From a virus (taxonomy: Duplodnaviria; Caudoviricetes): DNA of 64,000 nt. The stretch lies in the IMG/VR virus record IMGVR_UViG_3300021124_000001; one strand, given 5' to 3'. Below, piece by piece: positions 6,522 to 21,697 of this stretch. Both the position numbers and the translations under genes were made by a program. Position 1 is the first letter of the stretch. Each line of letters begins with the position of its first letter. Below the pieces are notes generated by a model. It saw nothing but the letters and a program-made list of their open reading frames with translations. It was not told where the DNA came from and did no database searches.

Positions 6522-6548
6522 TGTATTTTTTATTGATGAGGTAATGTG

Positions 6549-7082
6549 ATGTCTAATGTATTCAATACTGGTGTTAATCCAGTCCATTCTGGTATTTACG
6601 TGGTCGACCGCGGTGAGAAACTAGGTACACCGTTGCGTTGGTTCGATGCCGACACTGGTGAATGGTCTCGTTGTGAATATACAATGGAAGATGTTATTAA
6701 TGCCAAGGGTAAACCATCGGCACTTGGATTCTTGCCCTGGCGCGGTCCTGTCAAGGTAGCAAAACCAAAACCAGCCGCTGAGGTTGCATTGGTTAATGAT
6801 GTACACGTTACAAATACCAATAACCCAGTCGATTTTCCCAAGACTAAAGCCAAACCAGTCAAGGTTGCTAAAGTAAAAGCACCAAAAGCTGTTAAGGTAG
6901 CAAAATCAACTGGTACTAAAGCCACACACCCTGACGGTACTATTATCTTCCGTGCAGACCGTAACAAATACATGGCATGGTTTGGCGGTAAGCCAGTTGC
7001 GGCGCGACCAACTATCGAATCGGCTAAGAATTTTCTAATTAAGAAAGGTATTACTGCCGAAAATATCAATGTAATTGCATAA
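6549..7082 (+). CDS. Two-domain protein with Lys/Ala/Pro-rich linker, possibly DNA-binding
   Basis: GAGGT RBS; KPVKVAKVKAPKAVKVAK linker. Confidence 0.65.
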   Translation: MSNVFNTGVNPVHSGIYVVDRGEKLGTPLRWFDADTGEWSRCEYTMEDVINAKGKPSALGFLPWRGPVKVAKPKPAAEVALVNDVHVTNTNNPVDFPKTKAKPVKVAKVKAPKAVKVAKSTGTKATHPDGTIIFRADRNKYMAWFGGKPVAARPTIESAKNFLIKKGITAENINVIA

Positions 7083-7146
7083 ATAGGTGTGGGTCACCAC
7101 CCACCACAGGTGCACCCACTCTAATATCTATTACGGAGATACCAGC
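7078..7146 (+). promoter_or_regulatory. Late promoter plus two-hairpin leader, copy 1
   Basis: CATAAATA; GUGGGU-CAC-CACC...GGUG-C-ACCCAC; second hairpin UAUCU/AGAUA over the RBS. Confidence 0.8.
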
Positions 7147-7584
7147 ATGAAATATGTATATATTACGGCCGAGTTTAATAAAAAAATGTGTGAGATTTTT
7201 GAAGTTGATTATACGCCGACAGATACAACAAGATTTTTACTAAACAAAACCGAATCCATAATGCCTGTTAACATTGGTATTGATATTGGTGTATTTGGTA
7301 AAGACCCATGGAACAAAGGTAAAAATACTGGACCATTATCAGAATCACACAGAAAATCATTATCATTGGCGGCAAAAAATTATAAGAGAACACCAGAGCA
7401 TCAAGAAAATAATAGAATCGCAAGGTCAGATTCTTGGTCAGTAACTAATCCAAAAGGTGAAACATTTACTATAAAAAGTATGAATCATTTTTGTAAATGT
7501 AATCAATTAAATGCAGGACATATGACCTTGGTATCTCAAGGTAAAAGAAAACAACATAAAGGATGGACTTGTTCCAAAATATAA
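7147..7584 (+). CDS. Homing-endonuclease-derived DNA-binding protein with no recognisable nuclease domain
   Basis: PWNKG and SESHRKSLS NUMOD3-like motifs, C-terminal HTH-like KQHKGWTC; no GIY-YIG or HNH. Confidence 0.7.
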   Translation: MKYVYITAEFNKKMCEIFEVDYTPTDTTRFLLNKTESIMPVNIGIDIGVFGKDPWNKGKNTGPLSESHRKSLSLAAKNYKRTPEHQENNRIARSDSWSVTNPKGETFTIKSMNHFCKCNQLNAGHMTLVSQGKRKQHKGWTCSKI

Positions 7585-7781
7585 TGAACGAACGAATTAA
7601 AGAACTTGCTAAACAAGCAACTGTTCATGGCGATACTGAGCATCACCTGGACATACCGTTATGGTACTTGGAGCAGTTCGCCAAGTTGATTGTGAAAGAA
7701 TGTACCAATATTGTGTTACACTATACTGATGTTGATGAAGGTGTAGCAGTGGCCAAGAAACATTTCGGAGTTGAAGAATGA
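7584..7781 (+). CDS. MNERI...KFAELIV...HFGVEE family member 1
   Basis: All three framework blocks present. Confidence 0.8.
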   Translation: MNERIKELAKQATVHGDTEHHLDIPLWYLEQFAKLIVKECTNIVLHYTDVDEGVAVAKKHFGVEE

Positions 7782-8071
7782 AAACATCAGATATTAAAAA
7801 AGGTATGCGTGTCCGTCTTGCCAATGGTTGGTACGGTACTATGATGGATAATATGCGAGGTACTACCCGGCTTGTAGAGGTAGAAGGCCATTACACTGAA
7901 ACCGGGTCGGTATATTCACATGATATTATTGTGGCTCAAACACCTACAGGCTGGGAAGCCGTTGTGCATACTGCAAAAGAATTGCAGTGCAAAGAAATGA
8001 ATGAAGCGTTTTTTGGTGGTGGTGAAGAAGACCTACCATTTAAAAATGGTCTAGAATATATGTCAAACTAA
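7778..8071 (+). CDS. Hypothetical protein, possibly SH3-like
   Basis: Starts within the GGAGTTGAAGAATGA junction. Confidence 0.6.
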   Translation: MKTSDIKKGMRVRLANGWYGTMMDNMRGTTRLVEVEGHYTETGSVYSHDIIVAQTPTGWEAVVHTAKELQCKEMNEAFFGGGEEDLPFKNGLEYMSN

Positions 8072-8093
8072 GTATTGAATAAAGGAATATATT

Positions 8094-8636
8094 ATGCCAA
8101 ACTGGTGCTCTAATGTTGTGGTTATCTCTCACGTTGAACCATCCAAACTGGATGTTATTCGTGATGCTGTTAAGGTAGCGGCCGAAGCCTCTACTGGTGA
8201 ACATTTTTTCAATACTCTGGTGCCACGACCAGTAAATGAAGAAGAAAATTGGTATGAATGGAACGTGACCAATTGGGGTTGTAAATGGGATGTAGAGCCA
8301 CAAATTACCGAAGATACTGGTGATTCTATTACTTTGACCTTTGATACCGCATGGGCACCACCAATTCAATTCTATAATGAGATGGTCGAGCGTGATTATG
8401 AGGTTCGGGCATTCTATGATGAATCTGGTATGGCATTCGCTGGCATTTATGATAATGGCAATGACGATGATTATGAATATGGCAGTATGGACTCCAGTGA
8501 GATTGTAGATAATCTACCTCAAGAATTGGATGAAATGTTTGCTATCTCTGAGCAAAAGGCCGATTGGGAATCTGAAAACGAAGAACCTGATGTGGATGAA
8601 GCACAGGAATGGAACGATTTTGATCCAGAGTGTTGA
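8094..8636 (+). CDS. DUF1281/YubB ferredoxin-like protein
   Basis: MPNWCSN, WYEWNVTNWGCKWD and FDTAWAPP motifs. Confidence 0.8.
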   Translation: MPNWCSNVVVISHVEPSKLDVIRDAVKVAAEASTGEHFFNTLVPRPVNEEENWYEWNVTNWGCKWDVEPQITEDTGDSITLTFDTAWAPPIQFYNEMVERDYEVRAFYDESGMAFAGIYDNGNDDDYEYGSMDSSEIVDNLPQELDEMFAISEQKADWESENEEPDVDEAQEWNDFDPEC

Positions 8637-8646
8637 AAGGAAATAA

Positions 8647-9225
8647 ATGTTTGTCTTTGATGTTGAAACACTTGGTAAGGAATCTAGTGCAGTGATATTA
8701 TCCATGGCGGCCGTATACTTTGACCCGAGGGAAAAACCATCACCAAAAGATATGCGAGACACCGCATTTTTTGCCAAATTCAATGTCAATGACCAAATTG
8801 CAAGGCTTGGTCGCACCATGACCAGGTCATCCATATCATGGTGGGGTAAACAATGTGACATTGTAAAAAACAAATCATTTAAACCAAGCGCCGATGATAT
8901 TATCATTGATGATGGTGTAGAAGCCATGAGACAATGGTCAAAACAATTTCCAATGCACGACAAATGTTGGGTGTGGGCACGTGGCAACCTCGACCAATTG
9001 GTGCTTGATTCGATTGAAGAAAAACTAGGCATTGAACCTGTGTTTTTCTTTAATCGTTGGCGTGATGTGCGTACCGCATTGGACCTATTGAATGGGTCTG
9101 TGACTGGTTATGTGGATGTGGATTATCCTGGTTTCAATCCTGCACATCATATACAAAAACATGACCCAATTGATGATTGCATTTTTGACGCCATGCAGTT
9201 ACTATACGGAAAGAATGTAGAATGA
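8647..9225 (+). CDS. DEDDh 3'-5' exonuclease (DexA/Rv2179c-like)
   Basis: FDVETLG, WARGNLD, RDVRT and HDPIDDC motifs. Confidence 0.8.
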   Translation: MFVFDVETLGKESSAVILSMAAVYFDPREKPSPKDMRDTAFFAKFNVNDQIARLGRTMTRSSISWWGKQCDIVKNKSFKPSADDIIIDDGVEAMRQWSKQFPMHDKCWVWARGNLDQLVLDSIEEKLGIEPVFFFNRWRDVRTALDLLNGSVTGYVDVDYPGFNPAHHIQKHDPIDDCIFDAMQLLYGKNVE

Positions 9226-9443
9226 ACGAACGAATTGAACAAATTATTGAACAGGCATATTGCGATTTACATAAACAGGATCCAAATAGATTTTTTGGTG
9301 AAAGAACTATTGCTAAAAAAGTAGCCGAGTTGATTGTCCAAGATTGTGCCAATTTTGTGCGTGAAACATATGACCACGAGGCGGCAGAATCTATCGCATG
9401 GACAATGGAGATTAATTATGGTTTACACGGAGATTATGCATGA
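9222..9443 (+). CDS. MNERI family member 2
   Basis: MNERIEQ...KVAELIVQDC. Confidence 0.75.
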   Translation: MNERIEQIIEQAYCDLHKQDPNRFFGERTIAKKVAELIVQDCANFVRETYDHEAAESIAWTMEINYGLHGDYA

Positions 9444-9602
9444 AAACAATTTTTGATAAAGAGTATGATTCGGAATCATTGTGTGATTTGAGCCGAGATG
9501 TCCATGAGGCATTCAACAATGATTTTAATCCAACAGTAGCCGACATACCAAAAGACGAGTATGGCTTCCATGAAGGCCGGTTCATTGTCACAATAAAATG
9601 GG

Positions 9603-9664
9603 TGTTGTAAATTAACAACAAGCATACCAAAAGTCCTTGACGGACCGTCCAGATGTGCTATAAT
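9603..9664 (+). promoter_or_regulatory. Operator-associated promoter
   Basis: TGTTG-N8-CAACA, 16 bp, TTGACG-16-TATAAT. Confidence 0.85.
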
Positions 9665-9692
9665 TGCCACTTATTCGATTGATTAGGACACT

Positions 9693-9941
9693 ATGAGAAC
9701 CAAGCAAATTGTTCAAGGGCTTAAAAATAGCCAGCGTATACGTGCCATTGTGAATGGTGTTGGATTTTATACAACCGTACAAGATGCCCTGGCTGGTCCA
9801 TTTACTACGCAAACCTCGGCAGTTAATGTTGTATTGCATGAGATTGGTTCAAATAAATTAACTGGTTTTGGTCGAACCGTTAAAGTTTATAATAGCTATA
9901 TGGAAGCTGTTAATTTCAACATTCAAATTGATTTGGTTTAA
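9693..9941 (+). CDS. Hypothetical protein
   Basis: AGGA RBS after the promoter. Confidence 0.6.
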   Translation: MRTKQIVQGLKNSQRIRAIVNGVGFYTTVQDALAGPFTTQTSAVNVVLHEIGSNKLTGFGRTVKVYNSYMEAVNFNIQIDLV

Positions 9942-9951
9942 GGAGATAATC

Positions 9952-10404
9952 ATGGGTTTAGATATGTACTTGTCGGCACGTAAATATGTTTCTGATTTTG
10001 GTTTTAAACCAGAAGATACTAAACTAAATGCATCGATTAAAGAATCATTGGGTTTTGGTCCTAATGAATTTGGCCACATTTATGTTGAATTAGAAGTGGC
10101 ATATTGGCGTAAAGCAAACCAGATTCACGCATGGTTTGTGAATAATGTCCAAGATGGTGAAGACGATTGTGGAAATTATTATGTTTCCCGCGAACAAATT
10201 AGTGAATTGGTTAATCTGTGTTCGGAAGCCATTGATAATAAAGACTCCGAATTATTGGAACCAAAAAGTGGTTTCTTTTTTGGTTCGACCGATGTGGATG
10301 AATACTACTGGGACGAATTGAAACGCACCAAAATCGTCCTCAATCAAATTTTGAATGACAAACGACTGGAAGATTGTTCCTTCCAATATCATGCGTCCTG
10401 GTAA
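9952..10404 (+). CDS. Conserved phage protein (MGLDMY...YWRKANQIH...GFFFGST...YHASW type)
   Basis: AAGGAG RBS; recognisable widespread phage hypothetical. Confidence 0.75.
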   Translation: MGLDMYLSARKYVSDFGFKPEDTKLNASIKESLGFGPNEFGHIYVELEVAYWRKANQIHAWFVNNVQDGEDDCGNYYVSREQISELVNLCSEAIDNKDSELLEPKSGFFFGSTDVDEYYWDELKRTKIVLNQILNDKRLEDCSFQYHASW

Positions 10405-10426
10405 TGTTGCATAATAATGATTATAA

Positions 10427-10499
10427 TATAAATAGGTGTGTATCGCGTCCTGGCAGGGACCATACACTCTAGCCATCGAAACAATAATCAAGGACTATT
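10427..10499 (+). promoter_or_regulatory. Late promoter plus two-hairpin leader, copy 2
   Basis: TATAAATA; GUGUAU-CGC-GUCC...GGAC-C-AUACAC-UCUA. Confidence 0.8.
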
Positions 10500-10910
10500 A
10501 TGACCAGCACTAATATGTATATACCCCAGTCGGAATGGGATGCAATGTCCCAAGCATTATCTACCATATTCGATGTAGATTATGTACCAAGTAACACCGA
10601 ACCTTATATTGTAACCCCATTATATTCTAATAATTCTGGACATTTCAATCTAGGCATAAAAAGAACGGCCGAACAAAAAAAAGCTCAAAGTACTAGACAA
10701 ATAGGAATGAGATATTCCCATTTACGCAATGAAAAAATTGGATTTGCAAATTCTAAAAATTGGTTAATCACTGATCCTATCGGTATCACATATAGAGTTT
10801 TTAATTTAAGGCAATTTTGTCGAGAAAAAAACTTAAATCAATCTAGTATGACTATGGTAGCCAAAGGCAAATTTAAACAACACAAGGGTTGGACCTGTCA
10901 GAAAATTTGA
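10500..10910 (+). CDS. Homing-endonuclease-derived DNA-binding protein with no recognisable nuclease domain
   Basis: C-terminus paralogous to 7147..7584 (KQHKGWTCxKI); N-terminal LSTIFDVDYVP module. Confidence 0.7.
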   Translation: MTSTNMYIPQSEWDAMSQALSTIFDVDYVPSNTEPYIVTPLYSNNSGHFNLGIKRTAEQKKAQSTRQIGMRYSHLRNEKIGFANSKNWLITDPIGITYRVFNLRQFCREKNLNQSSMTMVAKGKFKQHKGWTCQKI

Positions 10911-10911
10911 T

Positions 10912-10973
10912 TGTTGTTTTTAAGCAACACCGTCCCGGATTGTCCTTGACTTAGGTGCCGGCCGTGTTACAAT
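10912..10973 (+). promoter_or_regulatory. Operator-associated promoter
   Basis: TGTTG-N8-CAACA, 16 bp, TTGACT-16-TACAAT. Confidence 0.8.
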
Positions 10974-11005
10974 GGACTCTTACTTTGATTGATGAAGGAA
11001 TTTAA

Positions 11006-11869
11006 ATGTCTGGTATTTTTATGGTTGACGGTAAGTATGCGGCTAATATCAACGGCAAGATTGTAAAACGTGCTAATCGCCGTGCATTGGAGCGTATGTT
11101 AAAAGTAACTGATGCCGTTGTTGCACCCACTGAGTCCAAATTCTCTATTAACCAGCGTTTTGGTTTCGTCCGTGATATGGTTCAAATGCTTGCAAAAGGC
11201 GACCAAGCGTCCGTGGTTGTATCGGGACCTGGTGGTCTCGGTAAGTCACACACCGTATCAGCCGCTTTGACCGATGCCGGCTTCACTGATCTGTCCGTGC
11301 TTGACGAATTGGCTGATGGTGCCGTTGTGCCTGATAAATCTTTCCGTGTTGTTAAAGGTTATTCTACACCAAAAGGTTTATATCGTGTTTTGTTTGAGAA
11401 TCGTAATTCGGTTGTTGTATTTGATGACTGTGATTCGGTGCTCAAAGATCCAGTATCTCTTAACCTATTGAAAGCGGCTCTAGATTCATATTCTCGCCGT
11501 ATTATCTCTTGGCGTGCCGATACTCGTGATGAAGAATTGCCTAATGTGTTTGAATTTAAAGGCCGTGTTGTCTTTATCTCTAACCTGTCGTCATCTTCAT
11601 TGGATCAAGCCATTATCTCACGTTCACTAGCCGTTGACTTGTCTATGACTGCCAAACAAAAGGTTGAACGTATGCGATTCCTGCTTGACCAAAAAGACTT
11701 TATGCCTGAGTATGACAAACAACACAAGGTCGATGCAATGGACCTTATTGCTGAGTTATGCGATAATGTGAAAGAGTTGTCTTTGCGTACACTGATTCAG
11801 GTAACAAAGATTCGTAAATCTGCCGGTGCAAACTGGAAAGATTTGGCTGAATATGCTATTGTTGGTTGA
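11006..11869 (+). CDS. AAA+ ATPase
   Basis: Walker A GPGGLGKS, Walker B VVFDDCD, sensor FISN, arginine finger ISRS. Confidence 0.85.
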   Translation: MSGIFMVDGKYAANINGKIVKRANRRALERMLKVTDAVVAPTESKFSINQRFGFVRDMVQMLAKGDQASVVVSGPGGLGKSHTVSAALTDAGFTDLSVLDELADGAVVPDKSFRVVKGYSTPKGLYRVLFENRNSVVVFDDCDSVLKDPVSLNLLKAALDSYSRRIISWRADTRDEELPNVFEFKGRVVFISNLSSSSLDQAIISRSLAVDLSMTAKQKVERMRFLLDQKDFMPEYDKQHKVDAMDLIAELCDNVKELSLRTLIQVTKIRKSAGANWKDLAEYAIVG

Positions 11870-11887
11870 TTTTTTAAAGGATTTATT

Positions 11888-12094
11888 ATGTTTGAACAAA
11901 CTGTAATGCAAAAAATTGGACATTTATTGAAAGAAGGCGAAACTGCTGAATTTCATAATGGTACATTGTTTCTCAATTCAGGCCGACCAACGGCCAATGA
12001 TGTTTATATTGAATTGTGTAACATTTATCGTAAACGATTTATAAATTTCAATATTGTTACTGAAGGTGAATATGCGTTTGACTTTACTGCGTGA
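11888..12094 (+). CDS. Hypothetical protein
   Basis: AAGGA RBS. Confidence 0.6.
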   Translation: MFEQTVMQKIGHLLKEGETAEFHNGTLFLNSGRPTANDVYIELCNIYRKRFINFNIVTEGEYAFDFTA

Positions 12095-12305
12095 GACTAC
12101 AAAGTGGGCCGATGGTTCGGCCACCAACTTCATATATGCCTTTGTGGATAAACCGGGTAAACGGTTAGGTAATGCTGTTGGTTATATCAATCACCTATCT
12201 GATGAGTATAAGGAATTTAGTAAGCCAATGGTGATTGATATGAAGGATAGGACCTTTGTAGAGGTAGGTAATATCAAATTTGAATTGGATACACCTATTC
12301 ATTGA
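12072..12305 (+). CDS. Hypothetical protein
   Basis: AAGGTG RBS before ATG 12072. Confidence 0.55.
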   Translation: MRLTLLRETTKWADGSATNFIYAFVDKPGKRLGNAVGYINHLSDEYKEFSKPMVIDMKDRTFVEVGNIKFELDTPIH

Positions 12306-12320
12306 AAGCGGCACACCGCT

Positions 12321-12349
12321 ATCTTATACACCATTTTTAAAATTGTCAA
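12321..12349 (-). promoter_or_regulatory. Antisense-oriented sigma70 promoter
   Basis: Minus strand TTGACA-17-TAAGAT in the intergenic gap. Confidence 0.55.
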
Positions 12350-12362
12350 GGTAACTTTTGGT

Positions 12363-12587
12363 ATGAATGAAAAAATTCAAAAACTAATGGGTAAGGCTCT
12401 AGATAGCGAAATGCGGCGAACCTGGGATACCATGACTTACGGAGACCTATTACAGTTTAGTGAAAAGTTCGCCGAGTTGATTGTTCGGGAATGTATGTAT
12501 GTAGGTCGCTTATCTCAGATTAACAACGGCCTTGTTGATTCAGATATCAAAGACCATTTTTACGGAGTTGAAGATGAACGAGACTGA
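12363..12587 (+). CDS. MNERI family member 3
   Basis: EKFAELIVREC...HFYGVE. Confidence 0.8.
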   Translation: MNEKIQKLMGKALDSEMRRTWDTMTYGDLLQFSEKFAELIVRECMYVGRLSQINNGLVDSDIKDHFYGVEDERD

Positions 12588-12665
12588 AATTAAATTACTA
12601 ATCGTCGGCACCATTATGCTTGGAGCAGGCATGATGTGGTTGGGCAATATCTTAGGGAGATTAGC

Positions 12666-12911
12666 ATGAGCAAAAGAATGAGAGAACTTGCCGAACAGGC
12701 TGGATTTCAATACATTAAAGATGAAGGCATTGGCTGGGCTGGAAATTACAATGACAGTTTACCCAAGTTCGCCGAGTTGATTGTTCGGGAATGTATCGGA
12801 TGTTGTGAACAAGTTATTAGTGATCCTGTTCCTAACTATATTGACACTTGGTTAAATGGTGGTTCGCAATGTATTGACGAAATTAAACAACATTTCGGAG
12901 TTGAACGATGA
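12666..12911 (+). CDS. MNERI family member 4
   Basis: RELAEQAG...KFAELIVREC...HFGVER. Confidence 0.8.
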   Translation: MSKRMRELAEQAGFQYIKDEGIGWAGNYNDSLPKFAELIVRECIGCCEQVISDPVPNYIDTWLNGGSQCIDEIKQHFGVER

Positions 12912-13135
12912 AAGTCATTATTGAAAAACCGGATGGATCACCATATCTCACAGTAAGTGATGATAGACTAATGGTGTCTGTTCAAATGCACGATTGTGTG
13001 TGGATAGGTGAGCCAGTAAAGATTCACTTTGACCGCAGAACCATACCAGCACTGATTGATGCGTTAAGCAGATTGAATCGTGGCGAACTTGACACAACCA
13101 TTCGCACACACCACTTTAACCAGGATATAGAATGA
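12908..13135 (+). CDS. Hypothetical passenger gene
   Basis: ATGA-coupled at a junction repeat. Confidence 0.6.
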   Translation: MKVIIEKPDGSPYLTVSDDRLMVSVQMHDCVWIGEPVKIHFDRRTIPALIDALSRLNRGELDTTIRTHHFNQDIE

Positions 13136-13368
13136 AAAAGATACCAATGTTAGAACGGTTCGCCGCACAAAGTCTTGTTGAACACGATGGTGAGTTGATA
13201 TTCAGCAAAGAAAAGTTCGCCGAGTTGATTGTGCGTGATACATTAGACCAAGTTGCTGAATTTAGTCGTCTAACAAAGGCATATCAAACACAAGGCATTG
13301 ATCCCGAGATTGATGTTACCCGAGAAGTTTTGAAAAACTATGGGTTTACAAGATTTCCCAGGAGTTGA
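13132..13368 (+). CDS. MNERI family member 5
   Basis: EKFAELIVRD; junction repeat present but read in a shifted frame. Confidence 0.75.
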   Translation: MKKIPMLERFAAQSLVEHDGELIFSKEKFAELIVRDTLDQVAEFSRLTKAYQTQGIDPEIDVTREVLKNYGFTRFPRS

Positions 13369-13371
13369 AGA

Positions 13372-13599
13372 ATGAACGAACGAATTCGAGAACTTGCCGA
13401 ACAGTCCAGAGAAAAGAAATATGATTACGGTGCTAGAGAAGGTGAAAGTCATTACATTTATGTATTCAATGAAGAAAAGTTCGCCGAGTTGATTGTCAAG
13501 GAATGTCAAACTCGTGTAGAACAATATATCTGTGATTGCGGCGAGATTGGTTCATTGCCTGATGCTGTGATTATGAAACATTTCGGAGTTGAAGAATGA
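13372..13599 (+). CDS. MNERI family member 6
   Basis: All three blocks. Confidence 0.8.
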   Translation: MNERIRELAEQSREKKYDYGAREGESHYIYVFNEEKFAELIVKECQTRVEQYICDCGEIGSLPDAVIMKHFGVEE

Positions 13600-13868
13600 T
13601 TGATTACTTCCAAGCACTTAAAGAAATGCACCAGGGCAATGTGGTCAAATATGTGGGCACAGTAAATGGTAATGTGATGAGCGATAATGGTGCCAGTTTT
13701 TGTATGTGTCGTGGTTGTATCTTTCGATTCGACGATGGAGTAATCAAGTGGAACAAGTTGGGATATATGGTTTACGATCCAGACTACCGTTATGAACTAA
13801 CAGGTGAAACTGTGGATCCAAGGGCATGGAAACCAGAAGAGACAAAAAAGCAAAAGGATAAAGAATGA
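13596..13868 (+). CDS. Hypothetical passenger gene
   Basis: ATGA-coupled at a junction repeat. Confidence 0.6.
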   Translation: MIDYFQALKEMHQGNVVKYVGTVNGNVMSDNGASFCMCRGCIFRFDDGVIKWNKLGYMVYDPDYRYELTGETVDPRAWKPEETKKQKDKE

Positions 13869-14269
13869 AAGACGATGATGTAAGAAAAGAGATTAGGCGT
13901 ATAATGGAAAATCGTAAACACTATTCAAACACAAATAACCCTATTGATTTTCCAAAAATACAGGCAGGCGCTGATATCCATGCAGGTGATGGTGGTTATA
14001 GTATAGGCACACAAGAAAAGTATGAGGAGTTCGCTAAGGCTCGCAATAAGTCATTAGCCAACGCAAGAATTAGAGAACTTGCTGAACAGGCTGGATCAAC
14101 CCATAAACAAAATCTCGGAGTATATCAATTTTATACAGATGAATTGGAAAAGTTCGCCGAGTTGATTGTTCAGGAATGTATCGAGGTCGTGGGAGACTGT
14201 TCCGATCAATTTGCTACACGGTCGCAGATTACTGAAGAAATTAAAGAACATTTCGGAGTTGAAGAATGA
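13865..14269 (+). CDS. Fusion of an unrelated N-terminal module to MNERI family member 7
   Basis: Internal NARIRELAEQAG...EKFAELIVQEC...HFGVEE. Confidence 0.8.
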   Translation: MKDDDVRKEIRRIMENRKHYSNTNNPIDFPKIQAGADIHAGDGGYSIGTQEKYEEFAKARNKSLANARIRELAEQAGSTHKQNLGVYQFYTDELEKFAELIVQECIEVVGDCSDQFATRSQITEEIKEHFGVEE

Positions 14270-14673
14270 AATCATATAATGCAGTAAACGATTTACACAT
14301 GGCCATGGCTCACGCTATTTACGAGGGCTTTCCTGAATATGAATACGAAAGCCGTGATTTCAACAACCCGGATAGAAATGCCCGAGTGGTTAAAAAAACA
14401 CGCCACACCGAATACAATCTAACAGTCAAGGCCATGTTTCCTCAAGTCTGGAGTTCAACTGCGCTGGGCTTTGGTGGCATTGGTGGACAGGCTATTACTA
14501 CCGCATATACCACGGTGGTAGAAAGCGACATTGACTCAAGTTGTTGTGTGTATTTTGGTGGACAATTTGCTTACCGTATTGAACGACCTAATACTCAATT
14601 CTTTGAGGACCTGTCCAAACAACAAATGACCAAGGTGTCGGAAGCAAAGAAAAGATATGAACGAACGAATTGA
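14266..14673 (+). CDS. Conserved phage hypothetical protein
   Basis: FPQVWSSTALGFGGIGGQAITTAYT motif; coupled at a junction repeat. Confidence 0.65.
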   Translation: MKSYNAVNDLHMAMAHAIYEGFPEYEYESRDFNNPDRNARVVKKTRHTEYNLTVKAMFPQVWSSTALGFGGIGGQAITTAYTTVVESDIDSSCCVYFGGQFAYRIERPNTQFFEDLSKQQMTKVSEAKKRYERTN

Positions 14674-14950
14674 AAAACTTGTCGAACAGGCTACTATTAA
14701 AACTTCTCATCGGTATATTACTTGGGGAAATACGGTTGCTACTCAGTCCGAAGAAGTCTTTGACAAGGAAAAGTTCGCCGAGTTGATTGTTCGGGAATGT
14801 GCTAAAATTTGTATTGAACAGAATGTATCCAACCTTGATTTAGATGTTATTCGTGAGTCTGGCAAATTTACTTTACAGGATCTTGCTACCAAATCGTGTG
14901 GTGAGAATTTGTCTAAACAGATTAGGAAACATTTCGGAGTTGAAGAATGA
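14657..14950 (+). CDS. MNERI family member 8
   Basis: All three blocks. Confidence 0.8.
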   Translation: MNERIEKLVEQATIKTSHRYITWGNTVATQSEEVFDKEKFAELIVRECAKICIEQNVSNLDLDVIRESGKFTLQDLATKSCGENLSKQIRKHFGVEE

Positions 14951-15038
14951 ACTATTTTATTGTTGGGCTGGTCATTGGACTTATTCCAGGTATGTGTGTA
15001 GCGGCTAATTATCATTACAAAAAATGGAGAAATTCTAA

Positions 15039-15269
15039 ATGAACGAACTAATCAATAACTTAAGGCTTGATGCTGGAATAGCACAACTCAAAGATGATCC
15101 ACGATTAGTGGTAATTGATCGTGAAGGCAATGTGATTGATCCATTGATTGGGTTAGAAAAGTTCGCTGAGTTGCTTGTTCGAGAATGTGCTAATATTGCC
15201 ACGATAAATCAATATCAATCCTACACTCCTGGTCATTATATTTTGAATCATTTCGGAGTTGAAGAATGA
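15039..15269 (+). CDS. MNERI family member 9
   Basis: EKFAELLVREC...HFGVEE. Confidence 0.8.
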   Translation: MNELINNLRLDAGIAQLKDDPRLVVIDREGNVIDPLIGLEKFAELLVRECANIATINQYQSYTPGHYILNHFGVEE

Positions 15270-15391
15270 ACGAAGACGAACGAGCAGGTTGGTGGGCTGT
15301 TGTATGCCTATTGATGGTTGGTGCGGCCGCCTACTTTACGATTTTTATGATCGTTTTCAGTTTGTTAAAACATTTTTTCGGAGTTGAATGA
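15266..15391 (+). CDS. TM microprotein carrying the family termini (MNE...HFFGVE)
   Basis: Manual translation MNEDERAGWWAVVCLLMVGAAAYFTIFMIVFSLLKHFFGVE*. Confidence 0.6.
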   Translation: MNEDERAGWWAVVCLLMVGAAAYFTIFMIVFSLLKHFFGVE

Positions 15392-15537
15392 TGGACGCAT
15401 TTGATTTTATATGGAATGCAGACCAAGAATCCAAAATCAATCAACTTGAAAAACGTATTGAACAGTTGGAAAAACAGAATGAAGTCCTATGTGAATGTAT
15501 TTTATATTTCAAACAAAAATTAGGAGTTGAAGAATGA
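15388..15537 (+). CDS. Coiled-coil microprotein ending GVEE
   Basis: KINQLEKRIEQLEKQNE heptads; ends in a junction repeat. Confidence 0.6.
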   Translation: MMDAFDFIWNADQESKINQLEKRIEQLEKQNEVLCECILYFKQKLGVEE

Positions 15538-16001
15538 AACCTAAATTGTATATGTTAATTGGTGTACCCGGTTCTGGTAAGACCACATGGATTTCCAAAC
15601 AAGAATGGGCCAAAGATTGTTGTATCGTATCAACCGACAAATATGTTGAAGAATATGCCATGATGCAGGGCAAAACATATTCTGAAGTATTCCAAGAGTT
15701 TATGCCCACGGCTGTAGAGTTGATGACTGATAATGTTAGACTCGCAAGGGAAGATAACCAAGATGTTATTTGGGATCAAACCTCAACCACAGTATCAACC
15801 AGACGGAAAAAGTTTGCATTGTTGCCTGACCATTATGCCATTGCAGTAGTATTCCGTACACCGAGCCGTGATGAATTGGATGTCCGACTATCTGGACGCC
15901 CAGGCAAACACATTCCTAAAGAAGTGGTTGATTCTATGATTGCAAAGTGGGAAGAACCAACCGAAGATGAGGGCTTCAGTGAAATTTGGTACGTCAATTA
16001 A
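15534..16001 (+). CDS. P-loop kinase (AAA_33/polynucleotide kinase-like)
   Basis: GVPGSGKTT, STD and IWDQT motifs. Confidence 0.85.
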   Translation: MKPKLYMLIGVPGSGKTTWISKQEWAKDCCIVSTDKYVEEYAMMQGKTYSEVFQEFMPTAVELMTDNVRLAREDNQDVIWDQTSTTVSTRRKKFALLPDHYAIAVVFRTPSRDELDVRLSGRPGKHIPKEVVDSMIAKWEEPTEDEGFSEIWYVN

Positions 16002-16005
16002 GCCC

Positions 16006-16034
16006 TTGACAAATGCCACAAAGTGGTATACAAT
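16006..16034 (+). promoter_or_regulatory. Sigma70-type early promoter
   Basis: TTGACA-17-TACAAT. Confidence 0.75.
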
Positions 16035-16241
16035 GGTCACACAAACTAAGGAGTTCCAATGGGTAAGATGAAAGAAGTTGTTGATAGAATCTTGGACTTG
16101 GTTCAAAATGATTATGATGATGAGGCCATTGCATTGATTGTTGGTGTGGACATCACAATTGTTGAACAAGTCAAACGCAATTCTGGTCTTTATGAAGAAC
16201 CAAAAGACATAATTGAAAAATACTAATTTATGGAAATCGCA

Positions 16242-17381
16242 ATGAACAAAAATCAAAAAGCATTTATCTCTGCATCTGAGCGTAAACATGGCCGTGGTGC
16301 CACATTGACTCGTGACCAGATCAACGACATTGTTGAAGAAACTGGTTTGTCATTCCCATTCTGGTTGACCACAAAGTCTGAATATCGTGCTGGCCGTGGG
16401 CAGTATGAAGTGCCTACATTGGGCAATACACCTGTCGAGGTAGAATCTCCTGAGTTGGCTACTGTTGACCTTGCACAAGTTATGGTTCTGCGCCAGCCTA
16501 AACTGAAAGATGAATCTGATACCTCTATCCCTGAAAAGTACCCTGATTATGTCCCTTTTGGATTTTTTAAAGATTTACGGAACATTGTTAAATCCTCTCT
16601 ATTTTATCCTGTGTTTATTACTGGTCTTTCTGGTAATGGTAAAACCCTCATGGTTGAACAAGTTTGTGCCGAACTCCAAAGAGAGTGCATCCGTGTCAAT
16701 ATTAGTATCGAAACTGACGAAAGCGATTTGTTGGGTGGTCCTACTCTTGTCAATGGCAACGTTGTTAACCGTGATGGTCCTGTCATTATCGCTATGAAGC
16801 GTGGTGCCATTCTATTGATTGACGAAGTTGACCGTGGTTCTAATAAACTAATGTGCTTGCAAGGTATTCTTGAGGGTAAGCCATACTACAACAAGAAATC
16901 TGGTGAGTTGGTGCATCCTGCTCCTGGCTTCAACATCATTGCTACTGCTAACACTAAAGGCCGTGGTTCTGATGAGGGCAAGTATCTATCTCAGATTCTT
17001 GATGATGCATTCTTGGAACGTTTCCCTATTACTGTAGAACAGGAATATCCTGACAGCAGAACAGAGACTAAGATTCTTACACCATTGATTAAGGACGAAG
17101 ACTTTGTTAAGTGCCTTGTTATGTGGGCTGAAGTGGTCCGTAAGTCATTCGATGAAGATGCAACCGATGAAGTTATCTCTACTCGCCGTTTGGTGCATAT
17201 TGCAAAAGCATATGAAATCTTTGGTGAACGTATGAAGGCTATCAAATTGTGTGTGAATCGTTTCGATGAAGAAACCAAGACTGCATTCCTTGACCTGTAT
17301 ACAAAAGTTGATGCAAAGATCAATGCACCTGAAGCGCCTGCTGTTCCAACGCCAAAAGTTGATGAAGAAATTCCATTTTAA
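16242..17381 (+). CDS. MoxR/CobS-like AAA+ ATPase of T4-like phages
   Basis: GLSGNGKT, LLIDEVD, ATANTKGRG, AFLERF and STRRLV motifs. Confidence 0.9.
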   Translation: MNKNQKAFISASERKHGRGATLTRDQINDIVEETGLSFPFWLTTKSEYRAGRGQYEVPTLGNTPVEVESPELATVDLAQVMVLRQPKLKDESDTSIPEKYPDYVPFGFFKDLRNIVKSSLFYPVFITGLSGNGKTLMVEQVCAELQRECIRVNISIETDESDLLGGPTLVNGNVVNRDGPVIIAMKRGAILLIDEVDRGSNKLMCLQGILEGKPYYNKKSGELVHPAPGFNIIATANTKGRGSDEGKYLSQILDDAFLERFPITVEQEYPDSRTETKILTPLIKDEDFVKCLVMWAEVVRKSFDEDATDEVISTRRLVHIAKAYEIFGERMKAIKLCVNRFDEETKTAFLDLYTKVDAKINAPEAPAVPTPKVDEEIPF

Positions 17382-17391
17382 GGAGTGAGTT

Positions 17392-17739
17392 ATGATTAAG
17401 AAAATTCGTACAGGCAAACAAAATCGTCATGAAAAAATTACTGTTGCTTTGTTATCGGGTAAGCCAGTGGCTCCTGATGATATTAAAGCGTTGTTTAAGG
17501 GCACTGACCAAGAAGCCGTGTTGTACCGACTGAGTACAAACATCTATAATATTCGGCGTGATGGTGGTATCATACGTGTTCAAAAAAATGGGCGAGCGGT
17601 ATCATCCTATCAATTGATGAACCCACAAGATTTCAATGCCGATGGCCGTTTTGTTGGTCGTAAATCAGCCGAATCAGTAAATAAAACTGTTGAAGTTAAT
17701 CCAACAGAAATCATTGTAGATGAATTGGAAACAGTATGA
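17392..17739 (+). CDS. Putative winged-helix DNA-binding protein
   Basis: LSTNIYNIRRDGG..IRVQKNGRAVSSYQL resembles a recognition helix plus wing. Confidence 0.5.
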   Translation: MIKKIRTGKQNRHEKITVALLSGKPVAPDDIKALFKGTDQEAVLYRLSTNIYNIRRDGGIIRVQKNGRAVSSYQLMNPQDFNADGRFVGRKSAESVNKTVEVNPTEIIVDELETV

Positions 17740-17939
17740 ACGAAAAAGGTATAGTGATTCCTTATGAAGTGGCTGATGGTATTATTTTGGCTGGTTTGAT
17801 TGACCAACGTGCATACCTCACTGAAGAATTGCGAGCAAATGAGGAAGAACTCTCGTGGTTGCATCCTGAAGATATTGTCCGTAACAAGAAACTTATCAAG
17901 GCATTGACAAAGATTATCCATTACTATGGAGGTGAATGA
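17736..17939 (+). CDS. Hypothetical protein
   Basis: ATGA coupling. Confidence 0.55.
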   Translation: MNEKGIVIPYEVADGIILAGLIDQRAYLTEELRANEEELSWLHPEDIVRNKKLIKALTKIIHYYGGE

Positions 17940-18113
17940 TGAGTTCACTTGATGCTTTGAGAATTGTTTTTGGTCTTTCTTGTTTTATTGGTGCAACTGT
18001 CGGTTTGTATAATCAAGAATGGATGATGTCTTGTGCTTACTCTTTGTTCTATATTGCATTTGAGTTTGGTAATAAGATAGAAGAATAAATATTAAATTTG
18101 ATGGTGAACAACA

Positions 18114-18335
18114 ATGAAAGAACGTATTAAAGAAATTGCGTTGCAGGCTGGTGGTAGCCATTACCCTGATGTTGGTGGCGATCTATTACAGAAGTTTGCA
18201 GACCTATTGATTGATGAATGTATTAGAGCAATACAAGAAACACCTAATCATCATTGCTACACTAGTTTTGATATTGCACAATCTGATGGTACTAAGGCTG
18301 AATGTATTGAACACATTAAAAAAATTCTAATGTAA
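18114..18335 (+). CDS. Diverged MNERI family member 10
   Basis: MKERIKEIALQAG...QKFADLLIDEC; DNA blocks not conserved. Confidence 0.7.
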   Translation: MKERIKEIALQAGGSHYPDVGGDLLQKFADLLIDECIRAIQETPNHHCYTSFDIAQSDGTKAECIEHIKKILM

Positions 18336-18344
18336 GGAAATTAA

Positions 18345-18605
18345 ATGGATCGATTAACAGAACACGACTTACGTAATGTTAGATTTTTGATGTCATTGGG
18401 TAGTATTGGTCTGATGAGATTCATGCAACAAGCCAGCGAAGATGATATTCGTTATGCGAATGAGATTATGAGAATGTATAAAAGGGAAATGGAAGAGGCA
18501 GGCAGTAGGTTCACAGAAGATTCGTTCCTATCCCACAATCACAATGAGATTGAAGATTTTAGTGATGCAAAGTTGGTTCTGAAAAAGTTTATGTTAAACA
18601 AGTGA
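18345..18605 (+). CDS. Hypothetical protein
   Basis: AAGGA RBS. Confidence 0.6.
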   Translation: MDRLTEHDLRNVRFLMSLGSIGLMRFMQQASEDDIRYANEIMRMYKREMEEAGSRFTEDSFLSHNHNEIEDFSDAKLVLKKFMLNK

Positions 18606-18620
18606 TACGGAGATTATATT

Positions 18621-18938
18621 ATGACTGCAAGTGAAATTAAATTAGAATCTGATAAAGTAACGGCGGAGTTGTTTGCTGATGAAGTGGCCCGCCAATGGCT
18701 TAAGAGTTGCCTGAACACCTCTATTTGCACTATCACCTTCACCAAGAAAAATGGTGATGAGCGTGTTATGAAGTGCACACTGGACGAACAACATTTCCCA
18801 CCAATCCAAAAAGAAGCCGCAGAGGTCGGTGAAGTTCGTCAGAAATCCAAGGACGCCCTGGCCGTTTTTGACATCGAGGCTCAAGCATGGCGTTCATTCC
18901 GTTGGGATTCCATCAAACGATTTGAAATGGCGCTATGA
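18621..18938 (+). CDS. WYL_2/Sm-like SH3-barrel protein of T4-like phages
   Basis: ITFTKKNGDERVMKCTL...VFDIEAQAWRSFRWDSI. Confidence 0.8.
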   Translation: MTASEIKLESDKVTAELFADEVARQWLKSCLNTSICTITFTKKNGDERVMKCTLDEQHFPPIQKEAAEVGEVRQKSKDALAVFDIEAQAWRSFRWDSIKRFEMAL

Positions 18939-19085
18939 AAGATACCCTTGACATTGCACTGGTACTGTGTTACAATCTAGCCATACTTGCCGGCACTGCA
19001 TACCTTGTGGAATTCCACAATTGGTCAGGCTGGTGGTTCCTTATGACACTCTGCTTCATGGTAAGCATTAAAACGGACGATTAAA

Positions 19086-19919
19086 ATGAAATTTGCACTA
19101 TGCTCAGACCTCCATTTGGAGTTTGAAACACTTGAATTGAACAACACCGAAGGTGCTGATGTATTGGTGCTGTCCGGTGATATTTGCCTTGCTAAAGATT
19201 TGTGGCATAAAAATACTGAGCGCAGTGAAATCTGGATGAAATTCTTTACTCATTGCTCTGAACAATTCAAAGATGTGATTTACATTATGGGTAACCATGA
19301 GCATTATCATGGTGACTTTGCTAAATCATATAATCAATTAAAAGAAGCATTGGCTGAACTGCCTAACATTCATGTGATGGAAAAAGAATTCATTCACATT
19401 GGTGATGTGACCTTTATCGCAGGTACTCTTTGGACTGATATGAACAAAGAAGACCCTAGTACCTTGTTTGGTATCAAGGGTTACATGAATGATTATCGTA
19501 TCATTGAAGACTCTGCACGTCCTGTTCACTTCCGTGATTCTGATGGTAACTTCCACACTCGCACATCTAAGTTTAGTCCTGAACAGTCTGTTGAAGAACA
19601 CAAGGCCATGTTGAAAGTGATTGATGAAGTCACTAAAGATAATGTCACTGGAAAGTTTGTGGTTGTTGGACATCATGCACCATCTAAAATGTCCACTAAG
19701 CCAAAATATCAAGGTGATGTAATGGTCAATGGTGCATATAGTTCCGACTTGTCAGACTTTATCTTGGATCGTCCTATGATTAAAGTATGGACTCATGGCC
19801 ATACACATGATACGTTCGATTATATGATTGGTTCCACTCGTATTGTTTGCCGGCCGAGAGGATATGCAAACTATGAAGATGTTGCCGATACTTTTAAATT
19901 GCAGTATATTGAGGTTTGA
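19086..19919 (+). CDS. Calcineurin-like metallophosphoesterase
   Basis: DLHLE, GDI, GNHE, HHAP and HGHTH motifs. Confidence 0.92.
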   Translation: MKFALCSDLHLEFETLELNNTEGADVLVLSGDICLAKDLWHKNTERSEIWMKFFTHCSEQFKDVIYIMGNHEHYHGDFAKSYNQLKEALAELPNIHVMEKEFIHIGDVTFIAGTLWTDMNKEDPSTLFGIKGYMNDYRIIEDSARPVHFRDSDGNFHTRTSKFSPEQSVEEHKAMLKVIDEVTKDNVTGKFVVVGHHAPSKMSTKPKYQGDVMVNGAYSSDLSDFILDRPMIKVWTHGHTHDTFDYMIGSTRIVCRPRGYANYEDVADTFKLQYIEV

Positions 19920-19920
19920 T

Positions 19921-20355
19921 ATGGCCATCGAAAAAGCCAAACCATCTCGTGAAGAAATCAAGGAAAATGCTCAACTTCAAATGGAAGAAGACATTGCCAA
20001 TTGGAAAAAACTATACAATGAACATATCGATAAAGATATGTTGGATGAAGATGGTTATCCGACAGATGATGCATTGATTATTATTGAGAATTGGTATTGG
20101 AATGATCCAAAAGGTTGGTTTGAGTTTATCAAATCACTTTGGCATCTGAGTTCATGGGGTTGGGGTGAGGGTGAAGAACCACACGACTGGCGGAAAGATG
20201 AAATGTGTTATCGCTATCACATCTCCACTGCCGGTTGGTCTGGCAATGAAGCAATCATACATGCAATGCAAAAGAATGATTGGATGTGGCATCTTAATTG
20301 GGTACAATCACGCCGTGGTGGCCACTATATTTTTGAATTGAAAGAAATTACATGA
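19921..20355 (+). CDS. Hypothetical protein
   Basis: GAGG RBS; STAGWSGNE motif. Confidence 0.6.
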   Translation: MAIEKAKPSREEIKENAQLQMEEDIANWKKLYNEHIDKDMLDEDGYPTDDALIIIENWYWNDPKGWFEFIKSLWHLSSWGWGEGEEPHDWRKDEMCYRYHISTAGWSGNEAIIHAMQKNDWMWHLNWVQSRRGGHYIFELKEIT

Positions 20356-21053
20356 AAGTCTACATCTCAAACTATCGTAATCATTGGTTAAGCCCATACA
20401 CTATTCTAAAGAATGTGTGTTTTTGGGAAAAAGATCATGACGTATTCTATGACCTTGAAGAAAAAGGTAGCAAGTATACCAAATGGGTAAACTTTCTTAA
20501 TCCAATTTGCCAAGCATGGCAGAAGTTCTTAGACATCGTGCACCCAAGAATCAATTATGTGAAGATTGACAACTACGACACATGGAACATGGACGGCACA
20601 TTGACACCAATCATTCTACCGATGTTGAAGCAATTGAAGGCAACTAAACATGGTTCTGCTCCTGTTGATATGGAAGATGTTCCAGAATCAATGAGAACGA
20701 TTGACCATGAAGAATATGAAGATCAAAAATCTTTTGACTTCTACCATGATCCAGATTTACAAAAGGTTCAATGTGATATTCACGACCGTTGGGATTGGGT
20801 CTTGGATGAAATGATTTTTGCGTTCGAACACCTTGCTGATGATTCATGGCAAGATGCTTACCGTAGTGGTGTTATGGATTGGGGAAGCAAAGCGTGTGAA
20901 TGGAACGAAAATGGCAAAGCAACCATGTTCCAAATGGTTGAAGGTCCAAACCATACATATAAATGTGACTATGATGGAATGAAAGTAGTTGAAGACCGTA
21001 TTAATAATGGTTTGAGACTTTTTGGCCGGTATTTTAGAGGATTGTGGGACTAA
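20352..21053 (+). CDS. Conserved phage hypothetical protein
   Basis: Long ORF, ends GLRLFGRYFRGLWD. Confidence 0.7.
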   Translation: MKVYISNYRNHWLSPYTILKNVCFWEKDHDVFYDLEEKGSKYTKWVNFLNPICQAWQKFLDIVHPRINYVKIDNYDTWNMDGTLTPIILPMLKQLKATKHGSAPVDMEDVPESMRTIDHEEYEDQKSFDFYHDPDLQKVQCDIHDRWDWVLDEMIFAFEHLADDSWQDAYRSGVMDWGSKACEWNENGKATMFQMVEGPNHTYKCDYDGMKVVEDRINNGLRLFGRYFRGLWD

Positions 21054-21054
21054 T

Positions 21055-21273
21055 ATGAACGAACGAATTAAAGAACTTGCTATAGAGGCTGGGATGATTG
21101 TAGGTGAGGCAAATGGATTTGACATGACACGGTTGATGCCCAGAGAAGTAAAGTTCGCCGAGTTGATTGTGAAGGAATGTGTGGGCATTTACAACAAACT
21201 TGATAATGGTAATCAACATCTTGGCACTGACGATTACTTGGAAGCATTACAAAAACATTTCGGAGTAAAGTAA
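21055..21273 (+). CDS. MNERI family member 11
   Basis: All three blocks; first 27 nt identical to member 1. Confidence 0.8.
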   Translation: MNERIKELAIEAGMIVGEANGFDMTRLMPREVKFAELIVKECVGIYNKLDNGNQHLGTDDYLEALQKHFGVK

Positions 21274-21470
21274 TGAATGCCGAACGAGTTACAAACAAGA
21301 GATTAAACCGTAATGGATGGTACTGGGCAGTAAAGTTTGCTGACCCAGCGGATGCTGATGACCTAATCGCAACTTTGCCATTGGGCACAAAAGGATACTA
21401 CCGGGCCAAGGGGCATACTGCTCGACCACATTGGGTTTTAGTTAAAAATACTTTCGGAGTTGAAGAATGA
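21273..21470 (+). CDS. Unrelated small protein ending in the FGVEE junction
   Basis: 3' end TTTCGGAGTTGAAGAATGA. Confidence 0.6.
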   Translation: MNAERVTNKRLNRNGWYWAVKFADPADADDLIATLPLGTKGYYRAKGHTARPHWVLVKNTFGVEE

Positions 21471-21688
21471 AATCTCTCTTTAAACAAACAAAGGTTGTGT
21501 ATGATGCACACATGCAAGAATATGTTGTATTCTATAAGAATTGGTTGTTTTGGAAACATGAATGGACATATAAAGTATCTGAGTATCTTCCTGATGAAAG
21601 AGCAAAAGAACTTGCTGTAACCAGAGCAAAGAATATGTTAGATACCGTTGAAGTGTATCGTAGTCCCAAACCAGTATATTATTGTTAA
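21467..21688 (+). CDS. Hypothetical protein
   Basis: Coupled at a junction repeat. Confidence 0.6.
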   Translation: MKSLFKQTKVVYDAHMQEYVVFYKNWLFWKHEWTYKVSEYLPDERAKELAVTRAKNMLDTVEVYRSPKPVYYC

Positions 21689-21697
21689 GGATAAAAA

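Follow-up and report, generated by a model that had tools for sequence, protein, structure and literature searches.

What keeps short blocks of coding DNA nearly identical, down to their silent sites, in neighbouring genes that between these blocks carry segments with no detectable similarity? The question is raised by a stretch of 64,000 nucleotides (64 kb) of phage DNA (IMG/VR record IMGVR_UViG_3300021124_000001), hereafter the window, which contains 11 paralogous open reading frames (ORFs) for small proteins. An earlier note on this DNA described a family of constant blocks and two variable segments, V1 and V2, and proposed that short-homology recombination swaps these segments. We found that V1 and V2 are discrete modules that occur in many different pairings across phage genomes. 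The most likely explanation, in our judgement, is that recombination re-pairs these modules on a constant scaffold that is predicted to dimerise, with the junction between consecutive genes acting as a cassette boundary.

The 11 ORFs, at the starts given by the earlier note (Table 1), were all recovered, and a family profile built from those same ORFs matched nothing else in the window. The encoded proteins are acidic (median isoelectric point 4.9) and mostly ~65-100 amino acids long. Their alignment gave three constant segments, MNERI.ELAEQA (block 1), (E)KFAELIV.EC (block 2) and I..HFGVEE (block 3). The segments between the blocks could not be aligned and differ in length, as had been described. 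At the nucleotide level, block 2 (AAGTTCGCCGAGTTGATTGT) was present in seven exact copies and three copies with 2-3 mismatches (0 expected from 100 shuffles). Block 1 (ATGAACGAACGAATT) had five exact copies and two with 2 mismatches (0.29 expected from shuffles), and block 3 (CATTTCGGAGTTGAAGAATGA) had five exact copies and three with 2-3 mismatches (0 expected). The exact counts are the same as those reported before, and practically none would arise by chance. Two of the near copies of block 3 were found at the ends of non-family ORFs (15388-15537 and 21273-21470). The members starting at 7584 and 21055 are identical over their first 28 nt, against the 27 nt noted previously. Blocks 2 and 3 also have a common core, TTCG(CC)GAGTTGA, which is read in different frames.

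A profile search beyond the window, proposed in the earlier note, collected 307 members from 80 IMG/VR loci and the window itself (81 sequences in all), with up to 13 members per 20-kb locus. To follow the pairing of V1 with V2 we drew on 80 viral contigs and 120 database proteins. The 264 members that could be parsed gave 175 V1 clusters and 163 V2 clusters. At least two V2 partners were found for 33 of 34 multi-member V1 clusters, and at least two V1 partners for 41 of 43 V2 clusters. Thirteen pairs of V1 clusters overlap in two or more V2 clusters, which means that all four combinations exist. V1 and V2 therefore do reassort between loci and genomes, and with almost no restriction.

The same mosaic structure was seen for the members in the window. 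Database protein P0002 combines V1 of member 8 (14657) with V2 of member 4 (12666), and P0005 combines V1 of member 3 (12363) with V2 of member 7 (13865). V1 of member 3 was also found with another V2 in P0097, V2 of member 2 (9222) with a different V1 in P0044, and V1 of member 9 (15039) with a different V2 in P0066. V1 of member 6 (13372) occurred with three more V2 modules. V2 of member 4 (IGCCEQVISDPVP...) is common to 26 other proteins, none of which has V1 of member 4. For five of the six parsable window members, V1 and V2 were each found in other proteins and never both together. Member 11 (21055) had two full matches, and the member at 7584 had neither module in common with another protein. 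In pairs with one module in common, nucleotide similarity ended at nt 20-34 of block 2, in keeping with the suggested role of the blocks as recombination substrates. Within V clusters synonymous divergence (pS) was ~0.46-0.52, far above that of the near-fixed blocks. The ratio of nonsynonymous to synonymous divergence (pN/pS) was 0.28 for V1 and 0.22 for V2, showing that the modules are coding units under purifying selection.

A recombinant was also found in the population. One contig, L096, is 99.9% identical to window positions 13212-14277 and unrelated to the left of that point. The switch lies in block 2 of member 5 (13132), and to its left L096 encodes a different V1 (MNKLIAKLYDQ...). Further upstream, joined through the canonical junction, it carries another family member in place of the gene at 12908-13135. 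This member is itself a mosaic, with nt 1-89 100% identical to contig L001 and nt 52-188 92% identical to contig L044.

Such patterns could in principle come from ordinary tandem duplicates that diverged in place, with the mosaics being assembly chimeras formed at the blocks. Exact repeats of 20-35 nt, such as the blocks, could be mis-joined by short-k assemblers, and L096 is a single short contig. We consider this explanation extremely improbable. Module pairs with all four combinations are common, and the partners of a shared module are diverged (pS ~0.5), so they are not identical pieces joined wrongly. Many of the contigs come from k=141 assemblies, where k exceeds the repeat length. Several JGI and ENA metagenome samples yielded contigs nearly identical to the window, and more than 10 independent samples reproduced its arrangement colinearly, with identities of 99.4-100%. 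Sharing of V modules within loci was near random (2 of 156 pairs), so the members are not recent local duplicates; no selection for non-redundant repertoires was seen in this comparison either.

A diversity-generating retroelement or another form of targeted mutagenesis would give the same general pattern of a constant frame with variable inserts, which is all that favours it here. The V segments are unalignable and variable in length, and they form discrete clusters that recur across genomes. No template/variable repeat pair with adenine-specific differences was found in positions 7000-22000, where the repeats consist of the blocks and three two-copy families of 20-24 nt. No reverse transcriptase was found among the selected ORFs scanned, the whole window not having been searched for one. 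We give this mechanism practically no weight.

We next considered the silent sites of the blocks, using codon counts from 205 KFAELI blocks in the 81 sequences, with the long ORFs of the same loci as background. Block 2 was nearly fixed for AAG (89%), TTC (81%), GCC (85%), GAG (88%), TTG (89%) and ATT (97%). The same codons made up 36, 34, 22, 25, 25 and 50% in background ORFs and 33, 21, 20, 21, 21 and 66% in the variable parts of the family genes. In block 1, AAC reached 93% (41% in the background) and the rare codon CGA 94% (13%). In block 3, GGA reached 99% (23%), GTT 95% and the TGA stop 89%. As the codons fixed in the blocks are mostly minority codons, synonymous conservation runs against codon bias, which on its own does not account for the DNA-level identity noted earlier. 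All 216 locatable copies of block 2 were found in family ORFs, in frame 0.

Block 3 differs in that its sequence also serves the gene that follows. The consensus upstream of MNERI starts is the end of block 3, and tandem pairs read ..CATTTCGGAGTTGAAGAATGAACGAACGAATT.., so that GGAG stands 7 nt ahead of the ATG and stop and start overlap as ATGA. Across the family, starts are commonly preceded by a Shine-Dalgarno motif, which in many cases is the junction itself. With at most one mismatch allowed, we counted 234 copies of the junction GGAGTTGAAGAATG in 1.2 Mb, distributed over 73 of the 81 sequences. Of the ORFs that end at these copies, 177 belong to the family and 36 are unrelated; of those that start there, 140 are unrelated and 68 belong to the family. 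Nine of 12 recurrent downstream gene clusters were preceded by different V2 modules, and 18 of 22 recurrent V2 modules were followed by at least two different genes. In the window, three unrelated small ORFs (15266-15391, 15388-15537 and 21273-21470) start or end at the junction, and its copy at 13361-13374 is intact even though member 5 reads it in another frame (..FPRS*). Because block 3 is kept out of frame and at the ends of unrelated ORFs, it is, as read from these sequences, chiefly the predicted Shine-Dalgarno element and start of the next gene. Since the junction bounds unrelated genes too, whole genes appear to be swapped as well, and we interpret it as an RNA-level translation signal that is also a boundary for whole-gene exchange. 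In two homologues, P0003 and P0012, two family units are fused in frame in tandem in one ORF of 131-134 amino acids, as expected if the stop in the junction is lost.

The common core of blocks 2 and 3 raised the possibility of a dedicated enzyme, a homing-type nuclease or site-specific recombinase, that recognises TTCG(CC)GAGTTGA and drives programmed diversification. The presence of the core in two blocks and two frames, with its silent sites fixed against codon bias, would suit such an enzyme, and the region contains two endonuclease-related ORFs, one of which adjoins member 1. Both match only the DNA-binding part of their profile (~188-248 of 433), no catalytic domain being detected in either, and both are without homologues in the other 80 family loci. 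No other co-occurring candidate enzyme was seen. According to Arbiol et al. (2010; PMC2839356), T4-type phages recombine at short homologies without a dedicated enzyme. A dedicated enzyme thus seems very unlikely.

We used AlphaFold2, with an alignment of 140 sequences made for this analysis, to predict the fold. Member 6 (13372-13599) was modelled with helices at residues 3-11, 34-56 and 63-71 and strands at 13-18 and 27-32 (predicted local distance difference test, pLDDT, 86.2; predicted template modelling score, pTM, 0.71). Member 4 (12666-12911), whose V modules are unrelated, gave an identical order of elements (pLDDT 80.6, pTM 0.70). In these models V1 is a hairpin and V2 comprises the end of helix 2 and a loop, so the predicted fold is helix, beta-hairpin (V1), helix, loop (V2), helix. 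Block 1 would form helix 1, block 2 a long helix 2 running into V2, and block 3 helix 3. The constant framework with two variable modules is thus alike in both modelled paralogs, whereas the small helical scaffold envisaged earlier is not purely helical. A Foldseek search against the PDB gave no convincing relative (best E 0.42), and the best Z in a wide VIA-align search (4.9) was within the noise range for helical models.

A homodimer of member 6 was predicted with an interface score (ipSAE) of 0.57, the best of three controls giving 0.00. Among proteins of solved structure, 20 of 30 one-chain pairs attained this ipSAE mark, compared with 1 of 23 single chains. The dimer runs shared at least 60% of contacts, with a partner pLDDT of at least 72. 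Interface residues were 1, 2, 5, 8, 9, 32, 34-35, 37-38, 41-42, 45-46, 49-50, 53, 62, 67 and 71, including the self-contacts 37:37, 41:41, 45:45 and 49:49. Eleven of the 20 fall in conserved columns (Fisher P 0.008), among them the invariant Cys45. The model suggests that the proteins dimerise, with the constant residues forming an in-register symmetric interface that would leave V1 and V2 exposed.

Taken as a whole, the explanation that we think likely is as follows. V1 and V2 are discrete modules kept by selection, on a constant scaffold that is predicted to dimerise. Ordinary homologous recombination would re-pair them between phages of one gene pool, with crossovers in block 2 (about nt 20-34) and in the block 3/block 1 junction. 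The junction (..TTCGGAGTTGAAGAATGAACGAACGAATT..) would act as stop, Shine-Dalgarno and start, its element GGAGTTGAAGAATGA coupling translation of the next gene. As it couples genes, it would work as a cassette boundary at which whole genes, unrelated ones included, are exchanged. Exchangeability itself would help to hold the blocks identical at silent sites.

Several observations weigh against this explanation. The Val wobble in block 2 is free (G 38%, T 37%) amid six neighbouring wobbles that are fixed. Block copies within a locus differ by 6.32 mismatches per 33 nt, compared with 5.90 between contigs; being no more alike within a locus, they are conserved family-wide and not by intragenomic gene conversion, so the homogenisation within the genome that the earlier note had proposed did not hold. 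As recombination alone explains neither finding, a direct nucleotide-level constraint on the blocks is possible. Members with perfect blocks more often have a multi-partner V1 (rho -0.28, P 4e-4), but this link is weak, is limited to V1 and absent for V2, and is confounded by sampling. L096 is a lone 1.3-kb metagenome contig, and the dimer is a model built on an alignment made in this analysis, which supports dimerisation but does not show it. Promoter-like sites in the region are not in excess overall (59, compared with 55 in shuffles), and searches of Pfam, PHROG, PDB and fold databases gave no structural or sequence relative of known function.

Some of these points would fit a rival explanation, in which silent-site conservation of blocks 1 and 2 reflects an RNA-level function, with recombination as a by-product. 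Candidate functions are pairing of the start region with block 2 in the mRNA, tuning translation, and an internal element that resembles a Shine-Dalgarno sequence (GAGTTGA, which also occurs in the junction). Conservation that is site-specific and family-wide rather than genome-wide fits such a function, as does the common core of blocks 2 and 3, and block 3 is evidently a Shine-Dalgarno and start, with its nearly invariant GGA and 7-nt spacing to the ATG. The consensus duplex of blocks 1 and 2 was predicted at -17.6 kcal/mol, compared with -10.2 +/- 2.8 for shuffles, 0.8% of which reached it, and GAACTT in block 1 is perfectly complementary to AAGTTC in block 2. Yet no covariation was found: 15 AAA variants break the pair without compensation, and the other side varies in three copies. 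Complementarity of block 2 to the anti-Shine-Dalgarno sequence was no greater than that of its shuffles, GTG as a possible internal start was present in 38% of copies only, and no Rfam family matched in the array. We regard an RNA-level origin as rather unlikely. It is compatible with the observed shuffling and is thus only a partial rival to module re-pairing by recombination.

The family extends far beyond this phage. A word-index search gave at least 7,990 profile matches among the 8,000 candidates scored. When all of 1.84 billion cluster representatives (50% identity clusters) were compared with the profile, 8,295 matched at E<=1e-3 and 1,018 of them at E<=1e-10. All family clusters were viral or metagenomic. 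Atlas clusters with taxonomy were viral, and the other Atlas matches were unnamed viral clusters or low-scoring rows. The database homologues had no Pfam domain and no meaningful name, nearly all being 'hypothetical protein' or blank; one bears the source label 'uridine kinase'. The best BFVD matches were uncharacterised proteins of uncultured Caudovirales, none of informative function. No family hit was obtained above threshold in Pfam-A or at E<=0.01 in PHROGs v4, and the best E-value against PDB sequences was 0.41. Searches of 50,697 GenBank phage records (megablast of the array, tblastn of two members, blastn of block 2) gave nothing significant, and a literature search with the family motif strings found no paper. 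The earlier statement that no characterised function is known was thus borne out in these searches, and by its sequences the family appears to be a very large, undescribed one of phage proteins.

A 20-mer of block 2 was found in 14 contigs among 185,579 species genomes. All were from metagenome-assembled genomes (MAGs), many named for freshwater lakes, with mixed and inconsistent taxonomy, and they are probably mis-binned phage DNA. One of them, NZ_JBBAKG010000001.1 (183,398 bp, in a Haliscomenobacter MAG), contains the block 2 20-mer together with junction-like sequence and may be a complete phage genome in the wrong bin.

The carrier of the array is an uncultured freshwater T4-type phage, represented by a contig of ~169 kb. 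T4-type baseplate genes were found further along the window (gp6 domains, 54424-56505; wedge protein, 56509-59688), with nearest cultured-phage relatives only 26-30% identical. The window also encodes a transfer-messenger RNA (tmRNA) at 37607-38014 on the + strand (Rfam beta_tmRNA, 125 bits, E 1e-37; permuted tmRNA model, 134.7 bits; ARAGORN tag peptide ANDEKFRIAA), whose beta type hints at a betaproteobacterial host. From ~5 kb to 24 kb all sizeable ORFs are on the + strand. The strongest consensus sigma-70-type promoters on this strand were at 6494, 9637, 10946, 16006, 18948 and 22492 (10-12 of 12 matches), which fits an early region transcribed by host polymerase. A stretch of ~250 nt, 70% identical, is present in inverted orientation at ~24516-24769 (-), in ORF 24182-24808 (-), and at 53820-54067 (+), in ORF 53820-54437 (+); the two ORFs are probably paralogous genes.

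The family genes sit among small non-structural genes in this early-type region. Near the array we found genes for an Rv2179c-like exoribonuclease, an AAA_33 kinase, a MoxR-type ATPase, a WYL_2 protein and a metallophosphoesterase. Genes for two known defence inhibitors, Acb3 and Tad3, lie side by side starting 1.4 kb downstream of the last member. Their proximity, and the early-type region, make an anti-defence or host-takeover role of the family plausible on circumstantial grounds, and the family genes would be expressed early. The proteins may form a combinatorial set of binders directed at host or defence targets, a possibility that we put forward tentatively. A fuller version, in which homo- and heterodimers act as a combinatorial binder system, the blocks are selected as recombination signals and lake phages trade recognition modules, is in our view unlikely. 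If it were true, 11 genes would give up to 66 dimer species, each displaying a pair of V1 hairpins and a pair of V2 loops. Directed against fast-changing host defence or takeover targets, the system would be comparable to an immune repertoire, but driven by homology and acting at the level of the population.

The coordinates of family members and associated ORFs are collected in Table 1. A motif NTNNP(V/I)DFPK occurs in ORF 6546-7082 (+) and again in the N-terminal extension of member 7 (13865-14056, +), and this stretch may be another exchanged piece.

Table 1. Family members and associated ORFs in the window
Feature	Positions	Strand	Length (amino acids)	Remarks
Endonuclease-like ORF, first paralog	7087-7584	+		Ends ..KQHKGWTC.KI; HNH/homing-endonuclease PHROGs
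Member 1	7584-7781	+	65	Profile 4e-22; start adjoins stop of ORF 7087-7584; block 1 exact at 7584; block 2 at 7674-7693, 2 mismatches; junction 7767-7780
Member 2	9222-9443	+	73	Divergent block 2 and C-terminus (NYGLHGDYA)
Endonuclease-like ORF, second paralog	10500-10910	+		Ends ..KQHKGWTC.KI; HNH/homing-endonuclease PHROGs
Member 3	12363-12587	+	74	Block 2 exact at 12465-12484
Member 4	12666-12911	+	81	Block 2 exact at 12765-12784
Member 5	13132-13368	+	78	Block 2 exact at 13213-13232; C-terminus ..FPRS*, junction in another frame
Member 6	13372-13599	+	75	Blocks 1, 2 and 3 all exact; copy used for modelling
Member 7	13865-14269	+	134	64-residue N-terminal extension; block 2 exact at 14150-14169; junction 14255-14268
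Member 8	14657-14950	+	97	Blocks 1, 2 and 3 all exact
Member 9	15039-15269	+	76	Block 2 at 15159-15178, 2 mismatches; block 3 exact
Unrelated hydrophobic ORF	15266-15391	+	41	MNE...HFFGVE; starts in junction 15255-15268, ends in variant 15380-15393
Unrelated ORF	15388-15537	+	49	Ends KLGVEE*, in exact junction
Member 10	18114-18335	+	73	Most divergent; without HFGVEE end; profile 1.8e-17
Member 11	21055-21273	+	72	Blocks 1 and 2 exact; ends HFGVK*; next ATG 1 nt on
Unrelated ORF	21273-21470	+	65	MNAER...NTFGVEE*, family-type ends; without block 2, no profile hit
Acb3, CBASS inhibitor	22700-23503	+		E 3.5e-29
Tad3, Thoeris inhibitor	23463-24008	+		E 9.8e-42

We compared the system with known cases of cassette exchange. 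In bacterial antigenic variation (Neisseria pilE/pilS, Borrelia vlsE), silent donor cassettes are copied into one expression site within one genome. As there, variable mini-cassettes are bounded by short DNA-conserved segments that guide recombination. In contrast to pilE/pilS, all 11 copies are complete ORFs with an ATG, and the exchange detected is between genomes of a phage gene pool. The attC sites of integrons are imperfect palindromes, whereas the junction is a coding overlap of 14-32 nt.

Closer parallels were found in T4-type phages. Promoter-early stem-loops (PeSLs) are intergenic elements that combine a sigma-70 promoter with a terminator stem-loop (Arbiol et al. 2010, PMC2839356; Comeau et al. 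2014, PMC4122927). Like PeSL cassettes, the repeats described here are short motifs with expression signals that flank small genes in hyperplastic early regions of T4-type phages and are points of homologous exchange at which genes are inserted, deleted or replaced; for neither is a dedicated recombinase known. The many junction copies, their unrelated neighbours and the gene replaced in L096 all mark the junction as such an exchange point. Unlike the intergenic PeSLs, the family repeats are coding, at the ends and in the middle of the protein, so that exchange inside a gene re-pairs modules. The junction is a stop/Shine-Dalgarno/start overlap without promoter or stem-loop. No strong promoter was found at the junctions or block 2, the sole overlap being a 9/12 match at 13345-13373, and none of 21 terminator-like sites coincided with a junction or block copy.

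The second parallel is gp38, the tail-fibre adhesin of T-even phages, in which glycine-rich motifs (GRMs) lie between hypervariable segments (Trojet et al. 2011, PMC3157838). In both systems conserved core motifs separate hypervariable segments drawn from a restricted set, and exchanges at or near the motifs give chimeras. gp38 is an adhesin of the virion, encoded in a single copy, and its role in host range is known. The family, in contrast, has no sequence relationship to it and comprises small, acidic proteins with two modules, encoded early and in multiple copies (11 here). Its blocks contain no glycine-rich motifs, and no homology to tail-fibre adhesins was found in Pfam or PHROG. With neither promoter and stem-loop nor glycine-rich motif and adhesin homology, the system works like PeSL and gp38 shuffling but belongs to neither.

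What is new is thus a shuffling process of the PeSL/gp38 type acting on an undescribed protein family. If the explanation given here is true, one of the largest unnamed phage protein families would be built for exchange, with abundant freshwater T4-type phages and giant phages each carrying several copies. Ideas developed for PeSL and gp38 would then apply not only to one adhesin or to intergenic motifs but to an entire class of early genes, the ends of which double as translation signals and cassette boundaries. The family offers a concrete case in which to test whether silent sites are constrained for exchangeability or for RNA function, and hundreds of natural module types on a ~75-residue scaffold that could be screened for host or defence targets.

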